Source: an uncultured delta proteobacterium
Lineage (GTDB): Bacteria > Desulfobacterota > Desulfomonilia > Desulfomonilales > Desulfomonilaceae
Assembly: GCA_963789265.1 (NCBI GenBank)
Contig: CAWBKB010000003.1
Coordinates: 960,001-1,024,000, forward strand
DNA length: 64,000 nt
Direction of reading: 5' to 3'
Position 1 is the first letter of the stretch; every line of letters begins with the position of its first letter. Of this stretch, positions 17,953 through 45,491 are shown one piece after another. Both the position numbers and the translations under genes were made by a program. The notes beneath the pieces are model-generated. The model was not told the origin of the DNA, made no database searches, and saw nothing but the letters and a program-made list of their open reading frames with translations.

Positions 17953-19206
17953 TTAGGCTCCAATCCGGCTGTTTAAAGACGGTCCCGCGCCTATTGACGT
18001 CATGGCCTTGTGCAGTTCCGAAACCGCAATTCCGGCGAATTCCGTGTCGTTGATATGGAAGTCCGCTTCTATCACTTTAACCCGAGAATCCAACAACGTC
18101 TTCAAGGCCGTGACAAAGACGCGATTCGTTTCCGGATCATAAAGGGGCCCACCGGGCGCGTCTGCTTCGGACCACCCTTTCAAGGGAATTACAACTGACG
18201 AGGGACCCTTGGCATGGTTCAATTTGGCGGCTATGACCTCTGCCAAGCGGAGGAGATCGTCCGCGCTGGTGCGCACGCCGGATCGGAAATCGTACCAGAA
18301 TACCTTTCTGTCTTTGAATCTCTCCGGAATCGTTTCCGGTGAGTCAAATTCCAACACGACGCAATCCAGGCCCCCGGGAACGGCCACCAGGGGTATGCCG
18401 TGGCGCCCCGCAGCCTCCATCCTGCCCGGCCCTATTCCACCGCAGTATCCGTTGTATAACTCATCCGCAAATTCATGAAGTGCAAAGTCCAGCACGCCGT
18501 CGATCAACCCCTGCGATATCAGGTCCTCCATTGCCATTCCGCCCGTGCCGTTAGCATGGAAGGGAGCGACATCATAGCCTTGATCTTCGAGCATCTTCTT
18601 TACCAGCATGGCACCTTCGGTTATGAACCCGAACGAAGTAAGACCGATGATGGGCCTTTGCCGATCCATACGAACGGGGCTCGACACCATCCCTGCCATC
18701 GCTGCGGCAGCGTTTGCGAGTATTTTTCTGCTCAGCGGGTTGAGACCCAGGATGTCTATCACCGAGTGCATCATGGTGATGTCTTTCGTTCCTATCAAAT
18801 CACTCATGTCGCGGCTTGCGACGGTTGAGAGCATCACCTTGGGTAGTCCCAAAGGCAGCGAGCGCATGATTCCGGTCCCAATGTGGGTCCCTGTCCCGCC
18901 TCCCAGGGCGAGAATACCCGAAACCACTCCCTGCCGGTGCAGGTCGTTGACTATCCTTTCAGCTCCCCGGGTCATTGTTTGAATGGCCAACCTTCGATCG
19001 CCCTTTTTCAGCAGCTCTTGCAATTGAACTCCGCCCGCGGTCGCAACCTGTTCACGTGAAATGTCCGACTGGATCCCGGGAGCATGGAGAACTCCGACGT
19101 CAATTACGAGTGTGGAACACGCGGCATCTTCGAGTAGCCGCTTCACGTACCCGATTTCCTCGCCTTTGGTGTCCAGAGTTCCTACGATAACGACCGTTGG
19201 CGGCAT
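17953..19206 (-). CDS. UPF0261 / Tm-1-like ATP-binding protein (paralog 1)
   Basis: GTLDTKGEE, ALGGGTGT, LPLGLPKVMLST, FHANGTGG, HINDTEFA; ATG 19206 after AAGAGGT. Confidence 0.9.
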   Translation of the reverse strand: MPPTVVIVGTLDTKGEEIGYVKRLLEDAACSTLVIDVGVLHAPGIQSDISREQVATAGGVQLQELLKKGDRRLAIQTMTRGAERIVNDLHRQGVVSGILALGGGTGTHIGTGIMRSLPLGLPKVMLSTVASRDMSDLIGTKDITMMHSVIDILGLNPLSRKILANAAAAMAGMVSSPVRMDRQRPIIGLTSFGFITEGAMLVKKMLEDQGYDVAPFHANGTGGMAMEDLISQGLIDGVLDFALHEFADELYNGYCGGIGPGRMEAAGRHGIPLVAVPGGLDCVVLEFDSPETIPERFKDRKVFWYDFRSGVRTSADDLLRLAEVIAAKLNHAKGPSSVVIPLKGWSEADAPGGPLYDPETNRVFVTALKTLLDSRVKVIEADFHINDTEFAGIAVSELHKAMTSIGAGPSLNSRIGA

Positions 19207-19290
19207 AGGCACCTCTTGTGGTTGGGTTGCCAGCTCACATTACAGGAGCCCCCTCCCGTCGGCAACAAAATTAAGGGGTATTGTGCAGAT

Positions 19291-20191
19291 CTATTGAGGG
19301 AGGTTCTTTTCCGCGTATTTCTTCAAAATCTCCAGGAAATGACCCAACGCAGGAGACAATGGCTCGTTTCGTCGAATCACGACATCGCTCTGGAAACCTA
19401 TGGTGCCTTCGAGAAGCAGAATGGGTTTTAGAACCCCACGGGACAGTTCTTCCTCGATCTCGTGCGACAATATGAACGAAATCCCCATCTTTCTCTCGAT
19501 GTACCCAAGTATTGAAACCGAGGCTTTCTGATTCGACCAGTAACGAAGGGGTCACGTCGAATCGTCGCAATAGCTGAAGGATCGCATTACGTGACCCTGA
19601 ACCCCGCTCCCTGAGAATCATGGCTTCTCCGTCAAGCGATTTTATGGGGACAGGATTGCCGGTCGCTAGAGGGTGGTCCGGTCGGGCAACCAGGACAAAC
19701 TCCGCCCGCGCAAACGGAACAGCCCTCAAGTCGGACCCGTACTCCGAACGGGCCACCACCACAAGGTCCTGCTTTCTGATCCGGACTCTATTGATTAGAT
19801 CGGCTGAGTTGCCTTCACTGAGATGCACGCAAATTCGAGGATATTTCTCCTGGAAACGCGCAATAAGATCGGGCATGACGATGCCCGCGTAAGCTTTTGT
19901 GATTCCTATTTTCAATACCTCAGAAGTGGCCTTTCGCGCTTTCTCGAGAAGTCCCTCGGCCTGTTCGATGCGCGAAAAAATACTTTTGCTCAGCAAAAAG
20001 AGCTGGTCCCCTGCTTCGGTAAGCACGTACTCGTGAGCCTGCCGGTAGAAAAGTTGCACGCCGCATTCAGCCTGAAAACTTCTAAGTTGCTGAGAGACCG
20101 CCGGCTGCGTCACATTTAGACACTCTGCGGCCCCGCTCATACTCATGAACCGGCAGAAGTAATGAAATGTTTCAAGATGCTTGAGATTCAT
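19291..20191 (-). CDS. LysR-family regulator (one frameshift at about 19512)
   Basis: MNLKHLETF...AAECLNVTQPAVSQQL HTH; RERGSGSR; removing one A restores ESLGFILGYIERKMGISF. Confidence 0.9.
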
Positions 20192-20228
20192 GGTGGTCCG
20201 GCGAAAAGGGATCTTTTCATATTATACT

Positions 20229-20293
20229 ATTAGGCAGCCTAATGCATCCATAACTTTTTATGACTTGACTGGCCTTAAAAAATCCCTGACAAT
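20229..20293 (+). promoter_or_regulatory. LysR box plus sigma70 promoter for the ubiX-pps operon
   Basis: Palindrome ATTAGGCAGCCTAAT (20229-20243, T-N11-A core), then TTGACT (20265-20270), 17 nt, GACAAT (20288-20293). Confidence 0.7.
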
Positions 20294-20453
20294 TCGTAGT
20301 GATGAAAGCTCTTCCTGAAAGAAGACCTTTTCAGGACAACCTCAAGCTCCACGATCGCAAAGATTCTTTTCACAACCTGTAATTTCCTGAAGGTACATTC
20401 ATGACTTGCCATAACAACCCAGCCGTTGGCCGTACGGAAGCACGGGGGGTCAT

Positions 20454-21017
20454 TTGAAGAGAGTTGTTGTTGCTATTTCCGGCGCGAGCGGCGTCATTTA
20501 CGGCGTCCGGCTTCTGGAGGTTCTTAAGCAGCTTGACGGGATTGAGACTCACCTGATCCTTAGTCATGGAGCAAGCATTACAATGAAATTGGAAACATCC
20601 CTGGATCCTGAGCAGGTGCAGGCGTTGGCAGATAGATCGTATTCCCCCGACGATCTTGCAGCTCCTCTTTCCAGCGGATCGTTCCGTACAGAAGGGATGA
20701 TTGTGGCTCCGTGCTCCATGAAAAGCCTTTCAATGATCGCCTTGTCTCTCAACGATAATCTCCTCATCCGGGCAGCGGACGTGACATTGAAGGAGCGCAG
20801 GAAGCTTGTCCTTGTCCCGCGTGAGACACCCCTACATCTTGGCCACCTGCGGGCCATGATCGCGGTTACGGAGATGGGCGGAATAATCCTGCCGCCTGTT
20901 CCATCGTTTTATCACCGCCCCAGCACCATTGAAGACGTTGTGGACCAAACCATCGGCAAGGTGCTGGATCAATTCGGACTACCAAACAATCTCTTTAACC
21001 GCTGGGGCGGAGGATGA
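20454..21017 (+). CDS. ubiX: Flavin prenyltransferase
   Basis: AISGASG, SSGSF, APCSMKSL, RAADVTLKERR, PRETP, PPVPSFYHRP; TTG start. Confidence 0.95.
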   Translation: MKRVVVAISGASGVIYGVRLLEVLKQLDGIETHLILSHGASITMKLETSLDPEQVQALADRSYSPDDLAAPLSSGSFRTEGMIVAPCSMKSLSMIALSLNDNLLIRAADVTLKERRKLVLVPRETPLHLGHLRAMIAVTEMGGIILPPVPSFYHRPSTIEDVVDQTIGKVLDQFGLPNNLFNRWGGG

Positions 21018-21533
21018 CGAAGGAAGAGCTGGAAGGTGCTGTGATCGCTTACATGGACTCGTTCACTACGATGACGCTCGCGTGCAGTACCAGAAGATAA
21101 GCCTTGGACAGCGGCCGTTTATTACGCCCGGCAAGGTTTGGATTTGATCTTCTTCTCTTCTCCCACCTCCCGCCATTCAGAGATCTTTTCCCGGAATCCC
21201 CTGGCCGCAGCCGCCATACATGGAGACTATCGGGGATGGAAGGAGATCAAAGGGTTGCAGATGGAAGGACGCATCCACTCCGTGACCGGCCCAAAAGCAA
21301 AGGCCCGTGCTATTTCTACCTATGTGAAGCGACATCCTTTTGTTCGTGAATTTGTCTCCGATCCACTGTCTATTAGTTCGGAAATCGCAAGAAAAATGAC
21401 CAAAGTGAATCTCTACTTCTTCCGGCCTGACGCGATTTTGTACCTCAATAACGAGGCCGGCTTTGGAACTCGATGGAAGCTGGAAGTTGAAGGAGGGCGG
21501 GCCTCCGGTCTGGCTGGGGAACCTTTGCTCTGA
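21014..21533 (+). CDS. Pyridoxamine 5'-phosphate oxidase-like split-barrel protein (YhbP/UPF0306-like), one frameshift at about 21091
   Basis: ATGA overlap with the ubiX stop; MTLAC, then after removing one C: EDKPWTAAVYY...FFSSPTSRHS...IKGLQMEG...NEAGFG. Confidence 0.75.
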
Positions 21534-21634
21534 TTGAGTTCTCCATAGCCTCTTCCGACAACCTCCAATGTATTGGCGCTTTTCTGGACCTTCCTCAACT
21601 GAACGTCAACCAACAACAACCAGGAGGTGTAGAG

Positions 21635-23467
21635 ATGGCCGATGTGAAGTTCCCCAGCCCGCACGAGGCGGAAAGCATCCCGGGAACCGAGGGATGGGAA
21701 AGAATGTTCCCGTACCATTATCAGTTCAGCACCAGTGATCCGGAACGAAAGAAGTACGAAGAAAGCATGTTCTGGTTCTACGACGGGCTGCACTACCCGG
21801 AGCCGATGTATCCTTTTGACATCATGTGGGATGAAGCTTGGTTTCTTGCTCTGTCCCAGTACAACAGCCGCATCTTCATTGTTCCGCCGGCCATGGGGAT
21901 AGACCACAGAATCCATAACGGCTACATCTACATCACGCCTCTCCCGGTTGCCAATCCGGAGGATATCCCCAAGCGCGCGGAACTCTTCATGAAGCGCGCG
22001 GGTTATTACTATCAGAATTGGAAGGAACTCGAAAAAAGCTGGGAAGGCAAGATGCGCAAGGTGATCACGGAGCTCATCGAGATCGAGATCCCGTCCCTCC
22101 CTGAAATGGAAGATGAGTCGGTCGTTTTCAAGGGAATAGGCCAGTCTTCCGGGTACAAACTTCTCAATGCCTACGACAGGCTGATAGACCAGGGAATACT
22201 CTGTTGGCAATACCATTTCGAGTTCTTGAACCTGGGATACGCTGCGTACGTCTTTTTCATGGACTTTTGCCAGAAGGCGTTTCCCGACATCACGGCGCAA
22301 CAGATAACTCAAATGGTTAGCGGCATTGATGTCATGATGTTCAGGCCGGACGAAGAACTCAAAAAACTGGCCAAACTAGCGGTAGAACTGGGAGTAGACG
22401 ACATTCTCCTGAAGGGCAAAGACGGTTCAGTGCTGGAAGAATTGAAAGCCTCCGAAAACGGGGCAAAATGGCTGAAAGATTTGGATGCAGCTCGCGATCC
22501 GTGGTTCTATGTCTCTTCCGGCACTGGGTGGTATCACGATCATGTTTCATGGAACGACGATTTCGCCTTCCCGCTCTCTTTTATAAACATCTATGTCGAA
22601 AAACTCAGGGCTGGAAAAAGCATCGATCGTCCCAAGGAAGCAGTGGCCAAGAGGCGCGACCAGTTGACGCAAGGCTACAGAGATCTCCTCAAGACCGACG
22701 AGGACAGGACTACCTTCGATCAGATGTTGACTCAAGCAAGGACTGTTTTTCCTTATGTTGAAAACCATCTCTTTTACGTCGAGCATTGGTTCCACAGCAT
22801 CTTCTGGAACAAGGTCCGAGAAGTTGCAAAAATCCTGGTCGACGCCAAATTCATCCAGGACGTAGAGGATGTTTGGTACTTGACCCGAGCCGAGATCAAG
22901 GACGCTCTTTGGGATGTCGTGACCTCTTGGGCCACAGGCTCCAAACCCCGCGGGCCTCTGGTATGGCCTCAAGAAGTAGTTTGGAGAAAACAGTGCATGG
23001 AAAAATTTCGGGAATGGACTCCGCCTGCTGCTATGGGCACTGTCCCCGAAACTATCAATGAGCCTTTCACCATAATGCTCTGGGGTATCACCTCCGAGTC
23101 AATGGCAAATTGGGCGAAGCTCAAAGCTATAGGCGAGGGGGATGTCTCCAAGATCATCGGATTCCCCGGTTCACCCGGGACGGCTGAGGGTCCTGCGCGA
23201 GTATGCCGCAAGGTATCCGACATTACAGATCTGAAGGAAGGTGAAATCCTGGTCTCTACAACGACTTCGCCGAGTTGGGCACCTGCTTTCCAGAAGATCA
23301 GGGCCGCAGTGACCGACGTCGGCGGGGTCATGTGCCATGCTGCCATCGTGTGTCGGGAGTACGGCCTTCCCGCGGTGGTTGGGACAGGCTCGGCAACATC
23401 AAGGATCAAAACTGGCCAACGAATCAGGGTAGATGGTGTTTCCGGCGAAGTTGATATCCTCTCATGA
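21635..23467 (+). CDS. ppsA: Phenylphosphate synthase alpha-like subunit (phospho-His carrier)
   Basis: N-terminus KFPSPH...IPGTEGWERMFPYHYQF resembles Thauera-type PpsA as recalled; GGVMCHAAIVCREYG phospho-His domain; 610 aa. Confidence 0.9.
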   Translation: MADVKFPSPHEAESIPGTEGWERMFPYHYQFSTSDPERKKYEESMFWFYDGLHYPEPMYPFDIMWDEAWFLALSQYNSRIFIVPPAMGIDHRIHNGYIYITPLPVANPEDIPKRAELFMKRAGYYYQNWKELEKSWEGKMRKVITELIEIEIPSLPEMEDESVVFKGIGQSSGYKLLNAYDRLIDQGILCWQYHFEFLNLGYAAYVFFMDFCQKAFPDITAQQITQMVSGIDVMMFRPDEELKKLAKLAVELGVDDILLKGKDGSVLEELKASENGAKWLKDLDAARDPWFYVSSGTGWYHDHVSWNDDFAFPLSFINIYVEKLRAGKSIDRPKEAVAKRRDQLTQGYRDLLKTDEDRTTFDQMLTQARTVFPYVENHLFYVEHWFHSIFWNKVREVAKILVDAKFIQDVEDVWYLTRAEIKDALWDVVTSWATGSKPRGPLVWPQEVVWRKQCMEKFREWTPPAAMGTVPETINEPFTIMLWGITSESMANWAKLKAIGEGDVSKIIGFPGSPGTAEGPARVCRKVSDITDLKEGEILVSTTTSPSWAPAFQKIRAAVTDVGGVMCHAAIVCREYGLPAVVGTGSATSRIKTGQRIRVDGVSGEVDILS

Positions 23468-23491
23468 ACTGCCTTAGCGGAGGACTTAGCG

Positions 23492-24571
23492 ATGGAAAAC
23501 TCCGAGTACGTGCTCCCCTTCGAGGAATGTGACCTCACCATGGTCGCTAAAGTGGGCGGCAAGTGTGCTAGTTTGGGGGAGCTTTTGAAGGCGCGCATTC
23601 CCGTCCCACCTGGATTTGCCGTTACTACCGACGCTTATGAGCTTTTCCTCGAAGAAAACGGTCTGACTGAAGGAGTAATGGGTAAACTCAAGGACTTGGA
23701 TGAAAGCAGGCTCGATGAAATCAACCGGGCATCTTCTGAAATTCGAGCCCACATAGAAGCGGGGACGATCAACGAACCCCTGGAAGATATTATTGCGGAG
23801 CACTATCGCTCCCTGGCAAAACGTTCCAGGACCCCAGCAGTACCTGTCGCAGTCCGATCTTCCGCCACCGCCGAGGACCTCCCCGACGCGAGCTTTGCAG
23901 GCCAACAAGATACCTTCCTCTGGGTGCGAGGAGTGGACGACTTGTTCGACAAGATACGCAAGTGCTGGTCCAGTTTGTTCACTGCTCGCGCCATTTCTTA
24001 CAGGACGAAAATGGGATTCGACCATTCCAAAGTACTGCTGAGCGTAGCAGTCCAAAAGATGGTCCGGTCCTTTGCCGCAGGAGTCATGTTTACCCTCAAC
24101 CCGTCTACAGGTGACCGCTCGACGGTCGTGATCGACTCGAACTGGGGATACGGGGAGAGTGTAGTCTCCGGCGAAGTAACACCGGACCAATTTCAAGTCA
24201 ACAAGATCACTATGGAGGTTGTCAGGAAGACGGTCTCTGACAAGGCAATGTACTACACGACGGATCCGGAGACCGATGAGGTAAAGAAACTTGAGGTCGC
24301 GTCTGAGCAACGGACGTCTCAGAGTCTGCTGGACGCCGAGATTATTGAACTGGCCAAGATGGCCAAGTTGATTGAGAAACATTACGGCAAGCCCATGGAT
24401 ATTGAATGGGCCACTGAAAAATCCCTCCCTTACAAAGGGGAAGTATTCATTCTCCAGAGCCGCCCGGAAACTGTCTGGAGCCGGAAAGAGGTGAAGCCCG
24501 TAGTGGAGCCCCGAAAGAGCGCGCTTGAGCACATAGTCGCGGGACTCATTGCTGGAAAGAAGATCAGATAA
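23492..24571 (+). CDS. ppsB: Phenylphosphate synthase beta-like subunit (ATP-grasp)
   Basis: VGGKCASLGEL, AVRSSATAEDLPDASFAGQQDT, MDIEWA, ILQSRPETVWS; stand-alone PEP-synthase N-domain next to ppsA. Confidence 0.9.
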   Translation: MENSEYVLPFEECDLTMVAKVGGKCASLGELLKARIPVPPGFAVTTDAYELFLEENGLTEGVMGKLKDLDESRLDEINRASSEIRAHIEAGTINEPLEDIIAEHYRSLAKRSRTPAVPVAVRSSATAEDLPDASFAGQQDTFLWVRGVDDLFDKIRKCWSSLFTARAISYRTKMGFDHSKVLLSVAVQKMVRSFAAGVMFTLNPSTGDRSTVVIDSNWGYGESVVSGEVTPDQFQVNKITMEVVRKTVSDKAMYYTTDPETDEVKKLEVASEQRTSQSLLDAEIIELAKMAKLIEKHYGKPMDIEWATEKSLPYKGEVFILQSRPETVWSRKEVKPVVEPRKSALEHIVAGLIAGKKIR

Positions 24572-24743
24572 CTCCAAATTGACAAGCCTGTAGGTGATGA
24601 TCGCCGCACCCGTGGACAGGGGTTGGGAATGCTGGACTATGACCACCGGGAGCTAGTGGCGAAGTGCGCCCTGAAAAGGGCAAAACAGGAACTCGCGGGC
24701 ATGACCGAGCGTTCGAAAACATCGATCCAAGGAGGATAGCAAC

Positions 24744-26186
24744 ATGAAGGAATTGAGGGACTTTATCAACCGGTGCGAACAAGAAGGGGAACTCCTTCGC
24801 ATCAAAACTGAGGTCGACTGGAACCTCGAGCTGAACCATGTCGCTAAAATCAGCGAGGAGCGCAAAGGCCCAGCGCTCCTGTTCGAGAACGTCAAAGGCT
24901 ATGACATTCCCGTTTTGACAAGTGCATTTACAACTACCAGGCGCTTCGCCATCGCTCTGGACATGCCGCTTGATTCTTCTATTTGCGACATGGCTCGTGA
25001 ATGGATGCAGCTCACGATAAAAAAGCCTGTTAGGGCCAAAATTGTGGACTCCGGCCCTGTCCGTGAAATGGAGATCAAGGGCAAGGACGTCGATATCCTG
25101 TCTTTACCGGTTCCCTTTTTCAACCCACTGGATGGCGGACGATTCATTGGTACCGCGGTTTACCTCGTGACTAAGGACAAGGAATCGGGATGGACCAATT
25201 GCGGAACCTATCGAATGCAGGTTCATGACCGGAATCACTGCGGTGTCCAGATCATCAAAGGTAAACACGCTGACTTCCACTTCAACCAGCATAAGAAAGA
25301 CGGTACAAAAATGCCGGCGGCCGCAGTCATCGGCGCGGACGCGGTTCACTTTCTTGTTTCATCGACTCTGGTATCAGCCCAAACGGATGAATTCGACATC
25401 ATCAGCACGCTTCGTCAAGAACCGTGTGAGATATTTGAGAGTGAGCTCACGGGGCTCAAACTGCCGGCCAACGCGGAGATTATTCTGGAGGGTTGGATCG
25501 ATCCGGCAGACATGCGAGAAGAGGGCCCCTTTGGCGAGTACACAGGCTATTATTCCGGTGCAAAGGGCGAAGAATGGCCGAAGCAGGTGCTCCATATCGA
25601 GCGCATACTAAGGCGCAAGAAACCTGTCTTCTGGGCAACCACAGTCGGCAAGCCGATCACGGACACTCACATGATCCAGTCTCTCAACCGGAGCGCTACT
25701 CTGTGGACGGATCTGGAGAACATGAAGATTCCGGGAATCAAATCCGTTTACTTTCTTCCGGAATCCACAGGCCGCTACTGGTGCGTTGTTTCCGTAGAGC
25801 AGAAATACCCTGGTCATTCCAATCAAGTAGGCAATGCCGTCATCGCAACGACTACGGGGCATTACGGAGTCAAGGGAGTAATCGTGGTAGGTGACGACGT
25901 GCCCGCGGACGATTGGGACAGAGTCATGTGGTCTCTTGCAGTTCGATTCGATCCGAAGCGTGATGCGCAGATTATTGATCGTGGGCGTTCCACCCCTCTG
26001 GACCCGGCTCTTCCCATCAACGCGCGCCATATAACTTCGAGAATCATTATGGACGCTTGCACTCCTTTTGAGTGGGAGAGAAAGCCGATCGAGATCTTTC
26101 TCGATGAAGACATGAAGAAGAAAGTCCTTGCCAGATGGAAAGAATACGGCTTTGAGGATTGGAGCGCAGCTATCTGCAAACCCTGA
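24744..26186 (+). CDS. ppcB: Phenylphosphate carboxylase beta-like UbiD protein
   Basis: EVDWNLELNHVAK, GTYRMQ, EGPFGEYTGYY, PESTGRYW, RGRSTPLDPAL resemble PpcB as recalled. Confidence 0.85.
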   Translation: MKELRDFINRCEQEGELLRIKTEVDWNLELNHVAKISEERKGPALLFENVKGYDIPVLTSAFTTTRRFAIALDMPLDSSICDMAREWMQLTIKKPVRAKIVDSGPVREMEIKGKDVDILSLPVPFFNPLDGGRFIGTAVYLVTKDKESGWTNCGTYRMQVHDRNHCGVQIIKGKHADFHFNQHKKDGTKMPAAAVIGADAVHFLVSSTLVSAQTDEFDIISTLRQEPCEIFESELTGLKLPANAEIILEGWIDPADMREEGPFGEYTGYYSGAKGEEWPKQVLHIERILRRKKPVFWATTVGKPITDTHMIQSLNRSATLWTDLENMKIPGIKSVYFLPESTGRYWCVVSVEQKYPGHSNQVGNAVIATTTGHYGVKGVIVVGDDVPADDWDRVMWSLAVRFDPKRDAQIIDRGRSTPLDPALPINARHITSRIIMDACTPFEWERKPIEIFLDEDMKKKVLARWKEYGFEDWSAAICKP

Positions 26187-26310
26187 GATAGTGGGCGCTC
26201 AGGAGATAAGCCGCCTAGGAACACAGTAAGTGTTTCGGCATAAACTCCTGAGCCTTTACCGCAGGACTTGCACAAGCTTAAACACATCGGCAAGGGAGGT
26301 GCACGGGCTG

Positions 26311-29203: not shown

Positions 29204-29245
29204 CGAAAAGAGAACGGCCATAGACAACCAAGGAGGAAAGGCATC

Positions 29246-34033: not shown

Positions 34034-34038
34034 ACAAG

Positions 34039-36009: not shown

Positions 36010-36541
36010 GAAGAAGATTAAGTCCATCAAGATTGATGCTGATAAGTGCAATGGCTGCCGGGCATGCGAGATCATCTGCTCCGCGTTTCACGCCACTCCG
36101 AAGTACAGCAGCAATAATCCGGCTAGGTCTCGTATTCAGGTGATCAGTCATCGGCTGAAAGATATATGGCTTCCGGTATTCGCGGGTGAGTATGCGCCGG
36201 CCGAATGTATGGGCAGAGACAAGTATGTGATTGACGGGAAGGAATACGAAGAGTGTGCCTTTTGTAGAGCATCCTGCCCATCCAGGGACTTCTTCAAGGA
36301 ACCCGATTCCGGTCTCCCTCTGAAATGCGACATGTGTGAAAGCGACCCGTCGCTGGAAAAGCCGATGTGCGTTCAGAAGTGCCTCAATGATGTCCTGATC
36401 TACGAAGAAAGAGAAGAGGAAGTAGAAGAAGAAGTGAAGCTGGAGGACGTAGAGTTAGGACTGGAATCCATGATCGACAAGTATGGCTTGCAGAAAGTCA
36501 TGGATACCGTTTCTCGCATCTCGGCGTCAAAGAAGGGCTGA
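35996..36541 (+). CDS. bamC: Class II BCR Fe-S subunit
   Basis: CNGCRACEIIC, CAFCRASCP, PLKCDMC...CVQKC; overlaps the bamB stop. Confidence 0.93.
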   Translation: MAKIKKKIKSIKIDADKCNGCRACEIICSAFHATPKYSSNNPARSRIQVISHRLKDIWLPVFAGEYAPAECMGRDKYVIDGKEYEECAFCRASCPSRDFFKEPDSGLPLKCDMCESDPSLEKPMCVQKCLNDVLIYEEREEEVEEEVKLEDVELGLESMIDKYGLQKVMDTVSRISASKKG

Positions 36542-36573
36542 AACATTAGGCCGAAAGAAGAGGAAGGAAGACA

Positions 36574-37729: not shown

Positions 37730-37793
37730 ATCGAAGTACTCTGGGTTTCCTATGTTGAAAAACGAAATTGACACGTCAAGAGGGACCGAAGCT

Positions 37794-38286
37794 ATGGCGA
37801 CAAATCCCGATCTCATTTCTCCTTGCGGTCTATACTGCGGTGTCTGTGCCATTTATATTGCACACCGCGATAATAACCTTAAGCTGAAGGAGCGACTATT
37901 AGGTCTTTACACAGGTGGAACTCCCGGCAAGGGCACCCTGCCCAATAGCGAAGACCTAGCAATAGAAGACATTCGATGCCGTGGCTGCTCGTCGGACGAA
38001 CAGTTTATGCATTGCCGCCAGTGTGAGATCAGGAATTGCACAAAAGAGAAAGGATACTCAGGGTGTCATGAATGCAATGAATTTCCCTGTCGTTACGTTG
38101 ATAATTTCTCCATGGCCGTTGGCAAGAAGGTTATTCTGCGGGCTGTCCCATATCGACGAGAGTTCGGGTACTGAAAAATGGATTCGAGACGAGGAAGCCC
38201 GCTATATATGCCCCCAATGCGGCAACAGAGTTTTTCGAGGTGCGATGAAATGTAATCAATGCAAAGTGCAACTAGATCTGGACTAA
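37794..38286 (+). CDS. DUF3795 Cys-rich protein with C-terminal zinc ribbon (one frameshift at about 38168)
   Basis: SPCGLYCGVC, CRGC, CEIRNC...CHECNEFPC, then CPQCG...CNQC. Confidence 0.75.
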
Positions 38287-38385: not shown

Positions 38386-41300
38386 ATGGGAGAAGTAATT
38401 TTGTTGAAAGAAGATCTCCAGCAACTTTGTGGCAGCTTTGGACAAACCAATTTTGGAGACGTGATGGTTGTTGGTGGAGGCATCAGTGGCATTCAAGCCT
38501 CTCTTGATCTTGCCACGGCCGGGTTCAAGGTTTACCTGGTGGAGAAAGGACCGAGCATTGGGGGACACATGGCTCAGTTGGACAAGACCTTTCCCACCAA
38601 TGAATGCTCCATGTGAATACTTTCACCCAAGCTGGTCGAGGTCGGCCGGCATCCAAACATAGAGGTCCTTACCTACACGGAAGTGGACCGTGTAGAAGGG
38701 GAAGCAGGAAACTTTAAGGTAGCTCTGACCAAAAGGCCCCGGTATATTCTCGAGGACAAATGCACGGGTTGTACTACCTGCGTAGAATACTGCCCGGCCA
38801 AATACCCCGATCAATTCAATCAGGAAATATCGCAGAATAAGGCCGTTCATATATACTTCGCTCAGGCAATTCCCCTTATTTCATATATAGATGAAAGCTG
38901 TCTTTACCTCAAAGAGAAAAAGTGTCGTATTTGCGAAGCAGTGTGCAAGAATAACGCGATAGATTTGAAACAAACGGCAGAGAAAAAAGAAATACAGGTA
39001 GGGGCGATCATTCTGTCGCCCGGCCTTGAGCCCTTTGATCCAAGGGTGAAGAAGGAGTATCGCTACGGAGAGTTTGCAAACGTCGTAACCAGCATGGACT
39101 ATGAGCGTCTGTTATCTTCCACGGGGCCGTACCAGGGAGAGATTCTGCGTGCTTCCGACCAAAAACACCCCCGCAAAGTAGCCTGGATTCAGTGCGTCGG
39201 TTCCAGACGGGTTACTAAGGGCGACAACAGCTATTGTTCCGCCGTATGCTGCACCTACGCCCAGAAACAGGCGATTTTGACAAAAGATCATAACGCTGAG
39301 GCCGAGTGTACAATATTCCATAACGATATTCGGTCCTACGGGAAGGATTTTGAGCGATACTTTGAGCGGGCAGAGAAACTCCCCGGGATTCGATTTATCA
39401 GGAGCTACACTTCGATTGTGCGAGAGGACCCTGAAACCAAGAATGTCACGTTACGATATTCCACCACCGACGCCGGAGTAAAAGAAGAAGAATTCGACAT
39501 GGTGGTATTGTCTGTTGGATTGAATCCTCCCGCTGATGTGAAGTCCATCGCAAACAAATTCGGCATAGAGCTGGAACCTCATGATTTTTGCAGGACCAGC
39601 CCCGTCAATCCCATGTCCACAAACAGACCGGGGATCTTTGTAAGCGGGGGCTTCCAGGGGCCTGTCGATATCCCGGAGTCGGTCTTCAGCGCCAGCGGAG
39701 CGGGTGCCCAGGTCGGTGAGCTTCTTGAATACAGGCGAGGAAATCTTGCCGAAGAAAGAGTATATCCGCCTGAACGAGATGTCTCTGGGGAGGAGCCAAG
39801 GATAGGAGTCTTCGTATGTCATTGTGGGGCCAATATCGGTAGGATAGTCAATGTTCCTGAGACAGTCGAGTACTGCAAAACGCTGCCTAATGTCGTCCAT
39901 GCTCAGGAACAGTTATTTTCATGCGCCACTAACTCCGCCAAAGAAATTACCGACATGACGAAAGAAAAGGGGCTCAATCGAGTGATTGTCGCTGCCTGCT
40001 CTCCCAGGACTCTTGAACCGTTATTCCGGGACACGGTTCGGGAGGCTGGAATTAATCAATATTACTTCGAAATGGCTAATATCAGGGAACACAATTCCTG
40101 GGTCCACTCGAAAGAACAAGAGGAGGCCACGCAAAAGGCAAAGGATATCATCCGGATGTCAACAGCACGAGCTTGCCGATTGGAGCCCTTGCAGGAATTT
40201 GACCTGCCGGTCAACAAAGCTGCATTGGTGGTCGGTGGAGGCATAGCCGGCATGAATTGTGCTCTCTCCATTGCCAACCAGGGGCATGAGGTACACCTAG
40301 TTGAAAAGAATACAGAACTTGGGGGAATAGCACGAAGGATTCATTCCACGCTGGAAGGACTGGATGTTCAGGAGTACCTGCGCGATCTCATAGCAAAGGT
40401 GTATCAACACCGCTTAATACATGTCTATCATAATGCGACAATCACGAATGCTACAGGTTATGTTGGGAATTTCGTGACCGCAGTGAAGTCTGATAGAGGA
40501 GTCGCAGAGATAAAACACGGTGCCTCGGTCATCGCTATAGGTGCCGATCTATATACCCCCACCGAGTACCTTTATGGAGAAGATGATCGGGTCATGACTC
40601 AGCTTGAGTTGGAGGAGCAAATCGCCAAAGGAGAAGAAAAGGTGATGAACTCCCAGAGTCTGGTGATGATCCAATGCGTAGGCTGCAGGAATGAGGACAG
40701 AAATTACTGTAGCCGGATATGCTGCAGCCAGTCGATAAAGAATGCTTTGAAATTGAAAGAGATCAACCCCGAGAAGGATGTTTATATTCTCTTCAGGGAT
40801 ATGAGGACCTACGGGTTTCGAGAGGACTATTACCGGGAAGCGGCCGAGAAAGAGGTAAAGTTCATCCGTTACGAGCCGCAGGACAAACCTCTGGTGGAGG
40901 CCGGCGAGTCGGAAGAGGGTCGGCCTGTTTTAAAGGTTACCGCGACCGACTATGTTCTGGGAAAGAAGCTTGTACTGGATGCCGATATAGTAGCTTTGGC
41001 TGCCGCGGTCATTCCCTCGGCCGCGACCAAGGAAATTGCCGGGTTGTTCAAGGTGACTTTGAACCCGGACGGCTTCTTCAAAGAAGCCCATGTCAAATTA
41101 AGACCCGTTGAGTTCGGTACAGACGGGGTTTATCTCTGTGGACTGGCTCATTATCCCAAGTTTATGCAGGAAACCATCAATCAGGCTTATGGAGCTGCAG
41201 GACGGGTTTTAACGTTGCTTTCACGTGATGTAGTGGTCGCATCCGGTTCAGTTTGTGAAGTGGATGAGAATAAATGCGTTTCCTGCGGGGCATGTACAAC

Positions 41301-41526
41301 GGTATGCAACTATGGCGCCATAGAATTTGTCGAGACAGCGCTCGGCAGAAAGGCCAGGGTTAATCCTGTCCTCTGTAAAGGGGACGGCCTCTGCAACACC
41401 GTTTGCGCGACGTCTGCCATAGTGCTGAAGCACTATACCGATGATGAGCTTTTGAGCGAAATTGATGCCGCGTTTCCAGAGGAAGAGGTCAACCAGCCAA
41501 TGGATGCTGCGGTTGGAAGTCACTAG
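38386..41526 (+). CDS. bamE: HdrA-like electron-bifurcating flavoprotein, selenoprotein (TGA 38614-38616)
   Basis: VVGGGISG...[30 protein letters not shown] continues in frame into the 947-aa ORF; two FAD sites and ferredoxin motifs. Confidence 0.93.
38631..38650 (+). promoter_or_regulatory. Candidate SECIS hairpin of bamE
   Basis: GCTGGTCG-AGGT-CGGCCGGC forms an 8-bp stem (including G-U pairs) with a G-containing loop, 14 nt after the TGA. Confidence 0.65.
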
Positions 41527-41668: not shown

Positions 41669-42436
41669 ATGAGTGCGGAACTTAAATTCAAACCAAAGAT
41701 TTTAGGGTTTGTGTGCCATTGGTGAGCATACGGCGCAGCCGACTTAGCTGGAGTTTCCAGAAGTCAATATACAACTGAAATGAGACTTATTCGCGTCATG
41801 TGTTCCGGTCGAGTCGATCTGACTCATGTATTCCGAGCTTTCTCCAACGGAGTGGATGGAGTGTTCCTTGGTGCCTGCCACTTAAATGAGTGCAACTATA
41901 CTACTCACGGAAATTACCACGCCTTAACCATGGTGAACCTGGCTAAGAAATTGCTGGAACGCATAGGGCTGAACCCGGAGAGATTGAAGATCGAATTTAT
42001 GTCCGGCAGTGAAGCCAACATTTTTGTCGAAGGGGTCAATGGTTTTGTCAGGAAGGTTAAGGAACTGGGGCCTATTGGCCGAGGTGAAGGACTGGACCAA
42101 AAGGAATTGAAGTTCAAACTGGAAGCGGTTACCCAACTTATCCCCTACATTAGACTGGTGGAAAGGGAGAGACTGAGAATACCCATTAAGTCCGAAGAAG
42201 AGTACCATCAATTCTTCGCGAGCGACGAGCTGAACCGGCTATTTGATGAAACTATTGCCGACAAATTGACGATAAGCCAAATTACGTTGCTCCTGCGGGA
42301 AAGACCCCTTCCAATGGCGGAAATGGCAAAAAGGTTGGGCCTAACCCCGTCGGAGGTATCCCGGCATCTGAATGCCTCATCGCGGCAAGGATTAGTCCGA
42401 TACGATGAAAGCCGGAAGTGCTTTGCTCTCGCCTGA
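41669..42436 (+). CDS. bamF: MvhD-like Fe-S subunit, selenoprotein (TGA 41723-41725), with C-terminal helix-turn-helix
   Basis: ATG 41669 after GAGGA: MSAELKFKPKILGFVCHW-TGA-AYGAADLAGVSR...IRVMCSGRVD...GACHLNECNY; hairpin CTGGAGTTTCCAG at 41748-41760. Confidence 0.92.
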
Positions 42437-42489
42437 GGCGAAAAAGCAAGCGGTGGATCGGACGAAAGAAGGAGATCAGGAAAGAGGCT

Positions 42490-42942
42490 ATGGACAAAGA
42501 GAGAATCGATCAGATTATTGACAAGCATCACGGCGAACCCAGTTCGTTGATTCAGATATTGCTGGAGATTCAGGCTGAAAATCATTGGCTTCCCAAGGAA
42601 GCCCTGGAGCAGGTCAGCGAAAGATTACAGGTCCCTATGACCCGGATACAGCATATCGCCACCTTCTACAAAGCCTTTAGTCTGGTTCCCAAGGGACGCC
42701 ATCAAATTCACATTTGTCAGGGAACGGCTTGCCATGTTCGGGGTGCATCGCGTGTGCTCGACACGGTGGAAAACCTGACGGGAATTAAACCCGGAGAAAC
42801 CGACTTGGATATGAAGTTCAGCCTGGAGACCGTGAACTGCCTCGGCTGCTGTGCTTTAGGTCCGGTGATGGAGATCGATGGAAAGGCTCACGGCAAGATG
42901 ACGCCGGCGCAGACCGCAGACGTGTTAAGAAACTACGATTAA
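42490..42942 (+). CDS. bamG: NuoE-like 2Fe-2S subunit
   Basis: ATFYKAF, CQGTACH, VNCLGCCALGP. Confidence 0.9.
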   Translation: MDKERIDQIIDKHHGEPSSLIQILLEIQAENHWLPKEALEQVSERLQVPMTRIQHIATFYKAFSLVPKGRHQIHICQGTACHVRGASRVLDTVENLTGIKPGETDLDMKFSLETVNCLGCCALGPVMEIDGKAHGKMTPAQTADVLRNYD

Positions 42943-42951: not shown

Positions 42952-44880
42952 ATGTCGCGGATAAATTCACCCGCTGAATTGGACGAATTCAGAAGAAACC
43001 TCCTTTCGGAAAGAGACCCCGATAAAACCTGCATCACGCTCTGTTCCGGATCTGCTTGCCATGCTTCAGGCAGTCGGGAAGTTGCTGCCAGTATCCAGGA
43101 GGAAATCCAAAAACAAGGTTTAAACGAGGAAGTGGAATTCAGGAGGACCGGTTGCCACGGTTTTTGCGAGCGAGGCCCCATTATCGTTATTCGCCCCGAA
43201 GAAATATGCTATTTCCAGATAAAGCCTGAGGATGTCCCTGAAATCATCTCCCAGACTATCAAAGAGAAGAAAATCATAGACCGTTTACTCTATACCGATC
43301 CCGGCACCAAAGAAAAGATCGTTCATGAATCTGAAATCCCCTTCTACAAGAACCAGGGGCGGCTGGTATTTGGTTCCAACGTCAAGATTGACCCTAAGAG
43401 CATTGATGACTATCTGGCCTTGGGTGGCTATTCGGGGTTAGCCAAAGCGCTTTGCGGGATGACCCCCGAGCAAGTTTTAGAGGAAGTCAAAAAATCCAAC
43501 CTGAGAGGAAGGGGAGGTGGCGGCTTTCCCACCGGAAGAAAGTGGGCGGAATCGCGCAATGCCCCCGGCGATATCAAATACGTGATCGTCAATGCCGACG
43601 AGGGGGACCCTGGAGCCTATATGGACAGGAGCCTTCTCGAGGGGAATCCTCACTCCGTGCTCGAGGGATTGCTCATCGGAGCCTATGCCATCGGCTCCAA
43701 CGAGGGATACATTTACGTTCGTCAGGAATACCCCTTGGCCGTGGAAAATGTGAACATCGCTATCCGGCAGGCCGAGGAGTACGGCCTTCTTGGCAAGGAC
43801 ATCCTGGGGTCCGGCTTTGATTTCACTATTTCGGTGCACCAGGGTGCCGGCGCTTTCGTCTGTGGTGAATCGAGTGCTCTAATGACGGCCTTGGAAGGCA
43901 AGGCCGGAGAGCCCAGACCCAAATATATACATACAGCGGTCAAGGGCGTTTGGGATCGACCCAGCGTTTTGAATAATGTCGAGACCTGGGCGAATGTGCC
44001 GCTGATCATCAATAAGGGCGCGGACTGGTTCACTCAATATGGAACCGAAAAAAGCAAGGGCACCAAGATCTTCTCCCTGGTGGGTAAGATAGTCAATACG
44101 GGGCTGGTGGAAGTCCCCATGGGCGTTACCTTGAGAGACATCATCTACAAAATAGGCGGCGGAATCCCCGGAGGCAAGAAGTTCAAAGCCGTGCAAACCG
44201 GAGGACCGTCGGGGGGATGTCTCCCTGAGGAACTGTTGGACCTGGAAGTGGGGTTTGATGAACTTACCAAGGCCGGTTCCATGATGGGGTCCGGTGGCAT
44301 GATCATTATGGATGAAGATACCTGTATGGTCGATGTCGCCAGGTACTTCCTTAACTTCCTTACGGATGAATCGTGCGGCAAATGCGTGCCCTGCCGGGAA
44401 GGCATCCGGCAGATGCTGAAGACGCTTACCAATATAACCCAAGGAAAGGGCAAAGAGGGCGATATCGAACTTTTGGAACAGTTAGCCGAGGTAGCCGGCG
44501 AGGCATCCCTTTGTGCTTTGGGCAGGAGTGCTCCCAACCCGTTTTTAAGCACGCTAAAATACTTTAAAGATGAGTATGAGGCCCACATCAAGGACAAGCG
44601 GTGCCCGGCTCTATCCTGTAAGGAACTCATCTCGTACTACATTGATCCGAAAGAATGTCGGGCCTGCACGACTTGTGGCAGGAAATGCCCTTCGGAGGCT
44701 ATTATAGGCGGCAAGAACCAGATTCATGTAATTGATCAGGAGAAATGCACCAAGTGCGGTACCTGCTTTGAAGTGTGCCCTCCCCGTTTTCATGCCGTGA
44801 GGAAAATTTCCGGCGAGCCTGTTCCGCCTCCTATCCCTGAAGAAGCCAGAACCATAGTCAGAAAGCGTAAAGAAAAATGA
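42952..44880 (+). CDS. bamH: NuoF-like FMN/NAD-binding subunit
   Basis: LRGRGGGGFPTG, NADEGDPG, GAFVCGE, ESCGKCVPCREG, C-terminal 2x[4Fe-4S]. Confidence 0.93.
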   Translation: MSRINSPAELDEFRRNLLSERDPDKTCITLCSGSACHASGSREVAASIQEEIQKQGLNEEVEFRRTGCHGFCERGPIIVIRPEEICYFQIKPEDVPEIISQTIKEKKIIDRLLYTDPGTKEKIVHESEIPFYKNQGRLVFGSNVKIDPKSIDDYLALGGYSGLAKALCGMTPEQVLEEVKKSNLRGRGGGGFPTGRKWAESRNAPGDIKYVIVNADEGDPGAYMDRSLLEGNPHSVLEGLLIGAYAIGSNEGYIYVRQEYPLAVENVNIAIRQAEEYGLLGKDILGSGFDFTISVHQGAGAFVCGESSALMTALEGKAGEPRPKYIHTAVKGVWDRPSVLNNVETWANVPLIINKGADWFTQYGTEKSKGTKIFSLVGKIVNTGLVEVPMGVTLRDIIYKIGGGIPGGKKFKAVQTGGPSGGCLPEELLDLEVGFDELTKAGSMMGSGGMIIMDEDTCMVDVARYFLNFLTDESCGKCVPCREGIRQMLKTLTNITQGKGKEGDIELLEQLAEVAGEASLCALGRSAPNPFLSTLKYFKDEYEAHIKDKRCPALSCKELISYYIDPKECRACTTCGRKCPSEAIIGGKNQIHVIDQEKCTKCGTCFEVCPPRFHAVRKISGEPVPPPIPEEARTIVRKRKEK

Positions 44881-45491
44881 GCGAAGTCCAATTAAAGATT
44901 GACGGAAGAGAAGTTAAGGCCGAAGAAGGGATGACCGTCTTGGAGGCGGCACGAAGTGCAGGGATATCTATTCCCACACTGTGTCACCACGAGAAATTGG
45001 AACCCTATGGGGCTTGCCGACTTTGTCTGGTGGAATTAGATATGCGCGGCTGGAAAAAACTGGTAGTTTCCTGCCTTTACCCGGTAGCCAATGATTTGGT
45101 GATAATCACCCGGTCGGAAAAGATAGATCGAATTCGCAAAACGATCTTGGAACTCTTGATGGCTCATGCTCCTGATGCTTTTGGATTGCAGGATTTGGCG
45201 AAAGAGTATGGAGCCGACAGGGACCGTTTCGATAAAGAGGCATCCTTCTGCATTCATTGCGGTCTTTGTGTAAGATACTGTGCTGAGGTTAAAAAGAAGA
45301 ACGCGGTTGGATTCGTTAATAGAGGAGCTAATCGGGAGATCAGCTTCATTCCGGAGGTGGCCTCCAAGGAGTGCTGGAACTGCAAAGAATGTTTTCAGCT
45401 TTGCCCTACAGAGGCGCTACAAGCCGCGTACGTTTTGGTCGAAGCGCTTGCGTTTCCGTCTGCTTCAATCAAGTCTACGTCAAACCGTTGA
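44877..45491 (+). CDS. bamI: NuoG N-terminal-like Fe-S subunit
   Basis: IPTLCHH...GACRLCLVE...SC, CIHCGLCVRYC, CWNCKECFQLCP. Confidence 0.9.
   Translation: MSEVQLKIDGREVKAEEGMTVLEAARSAGISIPTLCHHEKLEPYGACRLCLVELDMRGWKKLVVSCLYPVANDLVIITRSEKIDRIRKTILELLMAHAPDAFGLQDLAKEYGADRDRFDKEASFCIHCGLCVRYCAEVKKKNAVGFVNRGANREISFIPEVASKECWNCKECFQLCPTEALQAAYVLVEALAFPSASIKSTSNR

Follow-up and report, generated by a model that had tools for sequence, protein, structure and literature searches.

The window analyzed here is a 64,000-nucleotide stretch (G000:C3:960001-1024000) from the genome of an uncultured Desulfomonilaceae bacterium; its source assembly comprises 6.06 Mb in 9 contigs, with a completeness of 95.6% and a contamination of 6.1%. 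Between positions 17953 and 45491, the window carries a gene module for what is probably the entry pathway of anaerobic phenol degradation and, next to it, an operon for a class II benzoyl-CoA reductase. The module has a single phenylphosphate carboxylase subunit, PpcB. The canonical subunits PpcA, PpcC, and PpcD are missing; in other genomes, they alternate with proteins of the UPF0261 family, two of which are encoded in the window. The nearest relatives of the window are metagenome-assembled genomes (MAGs) of Desulfomonilaceae with PpcB proteins 83-97% identical to that of the window, and the closest one (locus L028) shares 91% DNA identity.

Genes of the module and their integrity

Searches with Pfam and NCBIfam profiles upheld all gene names, the gene order, and the orientations given in a first-pass annotation made from the sequence: a LysR gene divergent from an operon that runs from ubiX to an HD-domain gene, a TetR gene divergent from bamBCD-DUF3795-bamEFGHI, and a second UPF0261 gene behind LysR. 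The LysR regulator (19271-20191, minus strand; HTH_1 and LysR_substrate domains) is divergent from the catabolic operon. Downstream of it, and co-oriented, lies UPF0261 paralog 1 (17953-19212, minus strand; PF06792 and PF23189), a Tm-1/MarK-like ATP-binding protein of what we call the H-type. The catabolic operon, all on the plus strand, begins with a UbiX flavin prenyltransferase (20454-21017; NF004685, 272.6 bits, cut-off 188), the sole copy in the genome (one match by tblastn), followed by a small PNPOx-like/YhbP-like flavin-binding protein (approximately 21020-21533; assembled open reading frame [ORF] 21138-21533). Intact orthologs of the latter have 172-174 aa and match PF01243 with 29 bits (cut-off 28.1) and the YhbP model with 50.7 bits, under its cut-off of 176.

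The next two genes encode the PpsA-like alpha subunit of phenylphosphate synthase (21635-23467; NF006152, 966.6 bits, cut-off 723) and the PpsB-like ATP-binding subunit of the split dikinase (23492-24571; PPDK_N, 400.9 bits). PpsA carries the PEP-utilizers mobile domain, the phospho-histidine swivel, at residues 534-604 with the motif GGVMCHAAIV. With the PpsC-like CBS-pair protein encoded farther downstream (30660-31301; PF00571 twice), the module has the PpsABC architecture of a separate swivel-histidine subunit, an ATP-grasp subunit, and a CBS-pair protein, and PpsAB is predicted to be an ATP-dependent phenol-phosphorylating synthase that forms AMP and phosphate. The single UbiD-family phenylphosphate carboxylase subunit, PpcB (24744-26186), passes the equivalog model for the beta subunit (TIGR02724, 580.5 bits, cut-off 468.95) and scores far lower with the models for the alpha subunit (TIGR02723, 180.8 bits), VdcC (302.6 bits), and the menaquinone enzyme (290.5 bits). 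It is followed by an aryl-CoA ligase with an AMP-binding domain (approximately 26311-27972; assembled ORF 26483-27877), which is DHB-AMP-ligase-like and has 552 aa in relatives. Its intact orthologs score 272 bits with TIGR02275 and 287 bits with TIGR03208, both under the respective cut-offs; it is presumably a 4-hydroxybenzoate-CoA ligase.

The remaining genes of the operon, apart from that for the CBS-pair protein, are UPF0261 paralog 2 (27971-29203; PF06792 and PF23189), which belongs to a ligase-linked clade described below, a polytopic membrane protein and candidate permease (29246 to approximately 30350; 367-430 aa in relatives), and an HD-domain phosphohydrolase (31316-31903; PF01966, 42 bits). 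The membrane protein matched none of the Pfam and NCBIfam profiles; in the ESM Atlas, its recognition was low (1619), and the best cluster, "AAT family amino acid transporter" without a Pfam family, is a lead only. The HD protein has a 50% identical paralog that adjoins a second PpsA/PpsB-like pair on contig C1, and its homologs (46-53% identical) also occur in loci of the PpcA type (L123-L125). A scan of positions 14500-34200 for promoters and terminators gave site counts not above those of shuffled controls.

As assembled, the genes for the PNPOx-like protein, the ligase (at both ends), the membrane protein (spread over three frames), and BamD of the reductase operon contain frame changes: the ligase N-terminus MRPIRYTD and the N-terminal Fe-S motif of BamD are each encoded in another frame. 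Taken at face value, these five breaks or split genes could mean that the cluster is decaying, with four pseudogenes and a non-functional pathway. We regard decay as extremely improbable. An alignment with L028 reveals single extra bases in the window at 21091, 26404, and 27858. Read contigs from public sequencing runs have exactly one base fewer at 26404, 27858 (in two runs), 29832, and 36777 and show no further difference from the window (0 letters over records of 588 and 648 bases); a related strain, represented by a contig of run X3, has one base fewer at 21090. The depth of the read contigs is low, approximately 3-5, and one run may be the sample of origin. Relatives carry intact ORFs, including a single ORF for the membrane protein, and genes elsewhere in the assembly are split in a comparable manner. 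A further frame change of the membrane gene (30148-30206) lies outside the listed read contigs. The apparent gene breaks are one-base assembly errors, and the real genes are intact; the coincidence of the missing bases with the predicted breaks is hard to explain otherwise. Elsewhere on contig C3, a 1,021-aa ORF that joins a phosphoglycerate dehydrogenase-like protein to adenylosuccinate synthetase (L073:5236-8301; G000:C3:227236-230301) is probably also an assembly error, one that removed a stop codon.

Partners of PpcB across genomes

The genome contains only two UbiD genes, ppcB and a second one on the minus strand at 16516-17952, one base beyond the module. The latter passes the MqnL-type model TIGR03701 (609.9 bits, cut-off 495.9). 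Together with an MqnP-like UbiA prenyltransferase, it occupies 15480-17952 (minus strand) directly behind UPF0261 paralog 1, with no spacing, an adjacency without parallel in relatives. We considered whether MqnL might be a hidden PpcA and ruled this out: it passes the equivalog model for the menaquinone decarboxylase, and its UPF0261 neighbor is found in 0 of 55 loci of relatives. Since the genome has a single UbiX gene, one synthase of prenylated flavin mononucleotide (prFMN) must serve both menaquinone synthesis and phenol carboxylation.

The first-pass annotation correctly reported that ppcA, ppcC, ppcD, and hcr, the gene for 4-hydroxybenzoyl-CoA reductase, are absent from the window, and for the first three the absence extends to the whole genome. 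The best scores with the PpcA model TIGR02723 in the whole genome were 180.8 bits (PpcB itself) and 121.6 bits, against a cut-off of 564.6. The PpcC model TIGR02725 had no match in the 95.6%-complete genome; in PpcA-type loci, it picks up PpcC-like ORFs, although with weak scores (42-56 bits). With the PpcD model TIGR02726, the genome gave only a KdsC-like stretch on another contig, within a 533-aa frame (147.4 bits, cut-off 281.95), and this model is unspecific, with matches in 8 of 14 control genomes too. PpcA, PpcC, and a true PpcD are missing from this 95.6%-complete genome, which thus has none of the three subunits that would make up the canonical PpcABCD enzyme with PpcB.

We collected 61 PpcB loci and restricted all counts to the 55 from other genomes in which PpcB is at least 50% identical to that of the window; among the lineages represented are Desulfomonilaceae, Syntrophorhabdus, Bacillota, Spirochaetota, Anaeromyxobacter, and Rhodospirillaceae. 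PpsA is present in 49 of the 55 loci, PpsB in 48, the CoA ligase and UbiX in 35 each, the CBS protein in 30, LysR in 21, the PNPOx-like protein in 19, the membrane protein in 12, the HD protein in 2, and a true BamB in 1. UPF0261 occurs within 10 kb of PpcB in 48 loci, and 4 of the 7 loci without it are truncated. With 3 UPF0261 genes in the 6.06 Mb of the host genome, a chance neighbor would be expected in approximately 1% of 20-kb windows; the PpcB-UPF0261 arrangement is far beyond chance. In Desulfomonilaceae loci, the UPF0261 position behind LysR is also kept. Thus, the non-canonical module proposed in the first-pass annotation is conserved rather than a one-off, and its accessory genes are syntenic elsewhere. 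Among the five accessory genes proposed to replace the canonical ones, only UPF0261 with its ligase has a distribution complementary to that of PpcA/C/D; homologs of the HD protein are found in both architectures. Nor does UbiX lie outside the canonical set, as had been assumed, because ORF8 of Thauera has been equated with a UbiX-like gene in a published account of Desulfatiglans anilini (PMC6114531).

Three further observations concern the arrangement of these genes. In loci where an H-type UPF0261 gene stands beside or directly upstream of PpcB, a small PF21758 gene ("bacterial proteasome assembling chaperone-like") is found just upstream of UbiX (L047:13441-13917, L049:12255-12647, L058:12145-12528), after the CBS gene in L047 and L049; the window has no such gene. 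An 832-aa ORF that seemed to fuse PpcB to UPF0261 in L044 was rejected as an out-of-frame artifact of GC-rich DNA, the PpcB stop lying 28 bases before the UPF0261 start. A search for fusions of UPF0261 with UbiD or ligase among longer proteins gave 2 matches, neither with such domains, a blank that is weak evidence.

The counts above are anchored on the PpcB of the window. In a second sample, meant to remove this anchoring bias, 401 genomes of the phylum were searched with TIGR02724 and with a profile of the ligase-linked UPF0261 clade. TIGR02724 found 76 PpcB genes over its cut-off in 71 of the 401 genomes; for 48 of these genes, a cross-check by hand placed a UPF0261 match on the same contig at a distance of no more than 10 kb. 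Of the 28 others, 20 were fetched as loci. In 17 of these, PpcB is followed by a second UbiD gene (29-32% identical), a third UbiD gene, and UbiX; in the other 3, the sequence ends within 1.4 kb of PpcB. In all four UPF0261-less loci that were scanned, the second UbiD passes the PpcA equivalog model TIGR02723 (624-721 bits, cut-off 564.6), and beside it are KdsC-like ORFs of the PpcD type (103-146 bits) and PpcC-like ORFs of 81-91 aa (42-56 bits), both below cut-off. Three PpcB genomes, one of them a single contig rated 98% complete, contain no UPF0261 domain at all. Conversely, a second UbiD gene is found in 0 of 38 loci anchored on ligase-linked UPF0261 and in 2 of the 55 PpcB-anchored loci (L060 and L064). 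Both architectures are present within one genus of the sample (g33). One locus, L122 (G055:C1:159051-178466), holds PpcB, two PpcD-like genes, UPF0261, PpcA, a PpcC-like ORF, a third UbiD, and UbiX in one row; this hybrid is a possible intermediate between the two architectures.

The same division is seen in a FastTree phylogeny of 104 PpcB sequences rooted with MqnL. PpcA-associated PpcB proteins form one clade of 20 tips (15 typed, 4 truncated, 1 hybrid; support 1.0), whereas the UPF0261-associated proteins fall partly into its sister clade, to which the window belongs (63 tips; support 0.96), and partly into an outer clade (20 tips; support 1.0). The tree lacks a characterized anchor because the best 120 matches each for PpcB and UPF0261 paralog 2 are all proteins from MAGs or metagenomes, with at least 62% identity and none named as D. 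anilini, Geobacter, or Thauera. One of two sister PpcB lineages is partnered by the PpcA/C/D set, the other by the set of UPF0261 with the 552-aa ligase. Since both architectures contain PpsA and PpsB, UPF0261 tracks the carboxylase and not the kinase. Because it alternates with PpcA/C/D, UPF0261 probably serves the carboxylation step.

Two types of UPF0261 protein

The only characterized UPF0261 protein is MarK, which phosphorylates phenolic hydroxyls with ATP and releases ADP (PMC12624787). According to its published description, D14, T15, and K16 are located at the nucleotide site, the residues G195, H219, H304, and H348 surround the substrate, and the phenol-binding residues G195, H219, and H304 are more than 90% conserved in MarK homologs (PMC12624787). 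MarK (Saro_1862 of Novosphingobium aromaticivorans; PDB 9MPY) acts, as described, in aerobic acetovanillone catabolism with a biotin carboxylase (PMC12624787), whereas the window proteins stand beside a UbiD enzyme. Both window paralogs share the two domains of the family and the N-terminal D-T-K motif with MarK, to which their identity is approximately 35-40% by eye. Paralog 1 (E=3.2e-62 against 9mpy_A) has G, H, and Y at the positions of G195, H219, and H304. Paralog 2 (E=5.9e-55) keeps the glycine at G195 and differs elsewhere (H219S, H304L, H348A, and D282N). Our full-text literature searches found nothing that links UPF0261 or "Tm-1-like" proteins to phenylphosphate, and the terms "phenylphosphate," "UbiD," and "anaerob" were not found in the text of the MarK paper (PMC12624787).

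In a quick maximum-likelihood tree of 64 UPF0261 proteins, a ligase-linked clade (29 rows; support 99 by SH-aLRT) stands apart from the H-type clades, to which paralog 1 belongs; in 29 of the 29 loci, members of the ligase-linked clade adjoin the ligase. The profile of this clade gave bimodal scores over the 401 genomes (at least 575 versus at most 457 bits), and the 38 high-scoring loci make up the UPF0261-anchored set. The gene lies beside the ligase in 37 of them and at a contig end in the remaining one, PpcB is present in all 33 with enough sequence, and the ligase stop overlaps the UPF0261 start in 21 of 27 pairs. Among the residues that differ from MarK, D282N is found in 38/38 members of the clade and H304L in 37/38. 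A kinase role of the ligase-linked proteins is doubtful, because the residues that bind the phenolic oxygen in MarK are replaced in most or all members; a pocket remodeled in this way argues against plain phosphorylation of phenol. A complex prediction for the ligase of L020 and its ligase-linked UPF0261 protein returned a score of 0.00 twice, which is no answer and evidence neither way.

The activity of MarK suggests a different role: UPF0261 could be a second, cheaper phenol kinase, which forms ADP and works in parallel to the AMP-forming PpsAB, and a partner for PpcB would be unnecessary. In paralog 1, the DTK motif, G195, and H219 are retained, all three UPF0261 genes of the genome lie within approximately 25 kb of a split PpsA/PpsB-like pair, and the published account of D. 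anilini acknowledges that phenol activation poses an energetic problem for sulfate reducers (PMC6114531). On the other hand, both architectures retain PpsA and PpsB, whereas UPF0261 and PpcA/C/D tend to exclude each other, a pattern that would be unexpected for a redundant kinase, and the copy within the operon, paralog 2, lacks His219 and D282. We therefore consider a second kinase unlikely and prefer the proposal that UPF0261 proteins handle the phosphoryl group at the carboxylation and ligation steps, which itself is tentative, with somewhat less than an even chance of being right.

The third UPF0261 gene of the genome, which keeps H219, belongs to a second cluster of the aryl-phosphate type on contig C1 (G000:C1:1855001-1888000; L071 and L072). 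This cluster also encodes hydantoinase A/B-like proteins, a thiolase-like pair, a ligase, a major facilitator superfamily transporter, acyl-CoA dehydrogenases, a PpsA-like protein, a 904-aa Mo hydroxylase, a PpsB-like protein, an ARMT1-like phosphatase, and the HD protein that is 50% identical to that of the window. Its substrate may be hydroxyphenyl ketones or alkylphenols.

Substrate, ring reduction, and the proposed pathway

Three known systems bear on the function of the module. The PpsABC-PpcABCD system of Thauera aromatica and Aromatoleum, reportedly described by Breinig in 2000 and by Schuehle and Fuchs in 2004, is like the window in its homologous PpsA/B/C, PpcB equivalog, and UbiX-like gene and in the route from phenol via phenylphosphate to 4-hydroxybenzoate; it differs from the window in that the latter has no PpcA, no PpcC, only a KdsC-like match to PpcD, a UPF0261 protein, a ligase of a different subfamily, and a PpcB of the sister clade. 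A second is the pps-ppc operon of Geobacter metallireducens, which was reportedly described by Schleinitz in 2009. This operon (Gmet_2100-2102) is, like the module, from a strict anaerobe with a PpcB-only carboxylase, the mechanism of which is stated to be unresolved in the published account (PMC1924859).

The third is the "phe" cluster of the strict anaerobe D. anilini (H567DRAFT_02049-02059), described as phenol-induced and as containing ppsA, ppsB, a single ppcB (02059), a UbiX-like gene, and hcr (PMC6114531). As in the window, a 552-aa ligase is encoded beside ppcB, and UPF0261 is present. This ligase (02058) is described as a phenol-induced "DHB-AMP ligase" of function stated to be unknown, and the closest match to the gamma subunit of the Thauera synthase as an AcuB-type protein (PMC6114531). 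The authors report that ppcC is missing and suggest "a different catalytic mechanism" for sulfate and iron reducers (PMC6114531). The described "ppcD" is a KdsC-type phosphatase encoded elsewhere, as in the window genome, and BamB is of class II in both. As described, D. anilini has hcr inside the cluster and a second PpcB-like gene elsewhere, in contrast to the window genome with its distant hcr candidate and one PpcB; the H-type UPF0261 behind LysR, the PNPOx-like protein, the membrane protein, the HD protein, and the adjacent Bam operon go beyond the described D. anilini cluster. Clusters with a single PpcB have been described in the literature since 2009 and 2018 (PMC6114531), and the window cluster is another example of this published type. 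New in this analysis are the recognition of the gene breaks as artifacts, the division of UPF0261 into two clades, the link of one of them to the ligase, and the alternation of PpcA/C/D with UPF0261 on the PpcB tree.

Supplementary proteome data for D. anilini list 02057 as "Uncharacterized protein, UPF0261 family" with 403 aa (PMC7500099). In replicate 1, its area was 2.5e9 on phenol, 5.3e7 on benzoate (a difference of approximately 50-fold), 5.0e7 on aniline, and 0 on 4-aminobenzoate; in replicates 2 and 3, it was 4.2e9 and 6.7e8 on phenol versus 3.0e8 and 1.9e8 on benzoate (PMC7500099). For another UPF0261 protein, 03869 of the aniline cluster, the listed abundance is high with aniline and 4-aminobenzoate, and the protein is absent with phenol and benzoate (PMC7500099).

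The genome encodes many candidates for the removal of the hydroxyl group. No hcr genes were found within the 64-kb window, and the 35 hcr-like Mo enzyme matches in the genome represent a dozen or more paralogous genes, all below the TIGR03194 cut-off of 994.55 bits. The best candidate for the Mo subunit is an ortholog on the same contig, approximately 728 kb from the window (G000:C3:230597-232928). It is 64-65% identical to the gene that follows the PpcB-ligase-UPF0261 trio in L035 and L061, and it is adjoined by genes for the FAD and 2Fe-2S subunits and an IclR regulator (locus C3:230.6-234.3 kb). The host-genome search suggested in the first-pass annotation thus found neither ppcA, ppcC, nor a true ppcD, and for hcr an ortholog below the model's cut-off. 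Genes for an hcr-type Mo enzyme trio follow the ligase-UPF0261 pair in 16 of the 38 UPF0261-anchored loci, and a gene related to aldehyde oxidoreductase (AOR; 28% identical to BamB) with an Fe-S gene follows it in 6 of the 38. The AOR and Fe-S genes occupy the usual place of hcr in L080, L081, L085, L087, L088, and L090, which belong to one family of the phylum sample, and also in L037; the AOR gene may be a non-orthologous replacement for the dehydroxylating reductase.

According to the first-pass annotation, the module might act on a different compound from phenol (catechol, cresol, an aminoaromatic, or a hydroxy-heterocycle), a list to which aniline and hydroquinone may be added; the aryl phosphate or phosphoamidate of this substrate would be carboxylated and the CoA ester passed to the reductase. 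On the one hand, the aniline route of D. anilini, as described, uses a PpsAB-like synthase, PpcB-type subunits, and its own UPF0261 protein (03869), and the PpcB of the phenol cluster is said to serve aniline too; in the window, the regulator is LysR rather than an XylR-type phenol sensor, and hcr is absent. On the other hand, the genome has one PpcB-type UbiD, whereas the aniline system is reported to need two, and the trio of PpcB, 552-aa ligase, and UPF0261 fits the phenol cluster and not the ani cluster as described. The PpsA of the window is 61-64% identical to that of loci under XylR_N-type activators and only approximately 26% identical to the other PpsA-like paralogs of its own genome; the latter value equals the published distance between Pps-alpha and Pas-alpha. 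In other lineages, the neighbors of the cluster include XylR-type activators, which control aromatic catabolism. Given the hcr ortholog in the genome and the phenol-induced trio of D. anilini, as well as the PpcB equivalog and the hcr genes after the same trio, a new substrate is not supported, and we consider it quite improbable.

The benzoyl-CoA reductase operon is complete, as had been claimed, and all its genes are on the plus strand. BamB, the tungsten-type active-site subunit (34039-36009), matches 4z3w_A over its full length with 1004.6 bits, versus 213.6 bits to the best aldehyde oxidoreductase (1aor_A), which places it in class II. The domains of BamC to BamI follow in order: the iron-sulfur subunit BamC (35996-36541; Fer4 families), HdrD-like BamD (approximately 36560-37729; assembled ORF 36836-37729; CCG twice), a DUF3795 protein (37722-38174; PF12675, 72.5 bits), HdrA-like BamE (38386-41526; HdrA2, 926.7 bits with TGA read through), MvhD/FlpD-like BamF (41669-42436; FlpD, 108.9 bits), NuoE-like BamG (42418-42942; PF01257, 175 bits), NuoF-like BamH (42952-44880; Complex1_51K and NADH_4Fe-4S), and BamI, which resembles the N-terminal part of NuoG (44877-45491; Fer2_4 and Fer4 families). 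BamE and BamF each contain an in-frame TGA codon (38614-38616 and 41723-41725) that is predicted to be read as selenocysteine, at positions expected for it. The operon is thus like that of G. metallireducens (BamBC, PDB 4Z3W, and BamB-I) in the full-length BamB match, the subunit order, and the selenocysteine-type TGA in BamE and BamF, and unlike it in the DUF3795 gene between bamD and bamE, the double TetR upstream, and the phenol module beside it.

This TetR protein is encoded in one ORF divergent from bamB (32116-33372, minus strand; two TetR_N stretches) of 418 aa with two complete TetR units. The fusion looks real because a read contig crosses the junction of the units without gaps. The adjacency of module and reductase noted in the first-pass annotation holds in the window, but it is not conserved: it is found in 1 of the 55 loci, and L028 lacks the 13.4-kb TetR-Bam block, so that its HD gene directly adjoins the gene for threonyl-tRNA synthetase, which in the window comes after BamI. 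No repeats were found flanking the block, and hence no mobile-element signature. In the intergenic region between HD and TetR (31927-32090), loose ends and one back-joint occur among the read contigs of two runs; together with the absence of the block from L028, this suggests structural variation at the population level. Farther out, at 2468-12718 and 51838-56494, the neighbors are unrelated; they include an FtsX/ABC transporter pair followed by a Cus-like resistance-nodulation-division efflux pair (HlyD_D23 and AcrB families) and a NosL gene, 5-oxoprolinase-type genes (LamB/YcsF, CT_C_D, and CT_A_B), and a 656-aa OYE and Pyr_redox_2 enzyme of the dienoyl-CoA reductase type.

Taken together, we interpret the window as encoding the single-carboxylase form of the phenol entry pathway in a Desulfomonilaceae bacterium that is a strict anaerobe, with UPF0261 proteins in place of PpcA/C/D, and assign this reading a probability of roughly 0.7. 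From the observed gene content, family membership, synteny, complementary distribution, and phenol induction of the D. anilini homologs, we infer each catalytic step. PpsA and PpsB, aided by the CBS protein PpsC, would convert phenol and ATP to phenylphosphate. A homo-oligomeric PpcB with prFMN from the neighboring UbiX would carboxylate phenylphosphate in the para position to 4-hydroxybenzoate, which the 552-aa ligase would turn into 4-hydroxybenzoyl-CoA. An hcr-type Mo enzyme encoded elsewhere, for which the locus on contig C3 described above is the best candidate, would remove the hydroxyl group, and the adjacent BamB-I complex would reduce the ring of benzoyl-CoA. The H-type UPF0261 protein may be a competent MarK-like phosphotransferase, and the ligase-linked protein, with its remodeled acceptor pocket, may act on the carboxylated product or hand it over.

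Several points weigh against this interpretation. Three loci (L016, L043, and L064) have full flanks yet no UPF0261, and two (L060 and L122) hold both a PpcA-like gene and UPF0261. All PpcB proteins of the PpcA type belong to one clade; only one or two evolutionary events may underlie the pattern, and hence the counts overstate independence. His219, which binds the phenolic oxygen in MarK, is replaced in 31 of the 38 ligase-linked members (29 by serine, 2 by threonine; kept in 7), and D282 in all 38. The best single hcr match has 748.5 bits, and the split gene on contig C3 (230597-232895) has 695.7 and 214.7 bits, a rough sum of 910, all short of the 994.55 cut-off. Orthology to the characterized proteins is deduced from gene order, protein lengths, annotations in the sources, and an NCBIfam model. 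Finally, refolded aniline enzymes of D. anilini are reported to work without UPF0261, which is therefore not strictly required in that related system; by analogy, UPF0261 may be an enhancer rather than an essential subunit.

The preferred proposal, a role of UPF0261 with the phosphoryl group, can be made more specific, although with less confidence. The H-type protein might be a reversible aryl-phosphate/ADP phosphotransferase that supplies the phosphoryl group at PpcB or takes it away there, replacing the phosphatase PpcD, and the ligase-linked protein might be a possibly non-catalytic, nucleotide-binding subunit that couples release of the PpcB product to ligation. The two would then be the missing components of the single-subunit carboxylase, a version that we regard as speculative and rather doubtful.

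Phenol arises when lignin is broken down and is a major pollutant, and how energy-poor strict anaerobes afford its activation has been an open question since 2009 and 2018. The comparison presented here sharpens this question: there are two partner sets on sister PpcB lineages and two types of UPF0261 pocket, and one UPF0261 clade is tied to the ligase. If the more specific version of the UPF0261 proposal is true, part of the ATP cost that is puzzling in sulfate reducers would be saved, and the two types of UPF0261 protein together would represent a second, widespread solution for anaerobic phenol carboxylation.

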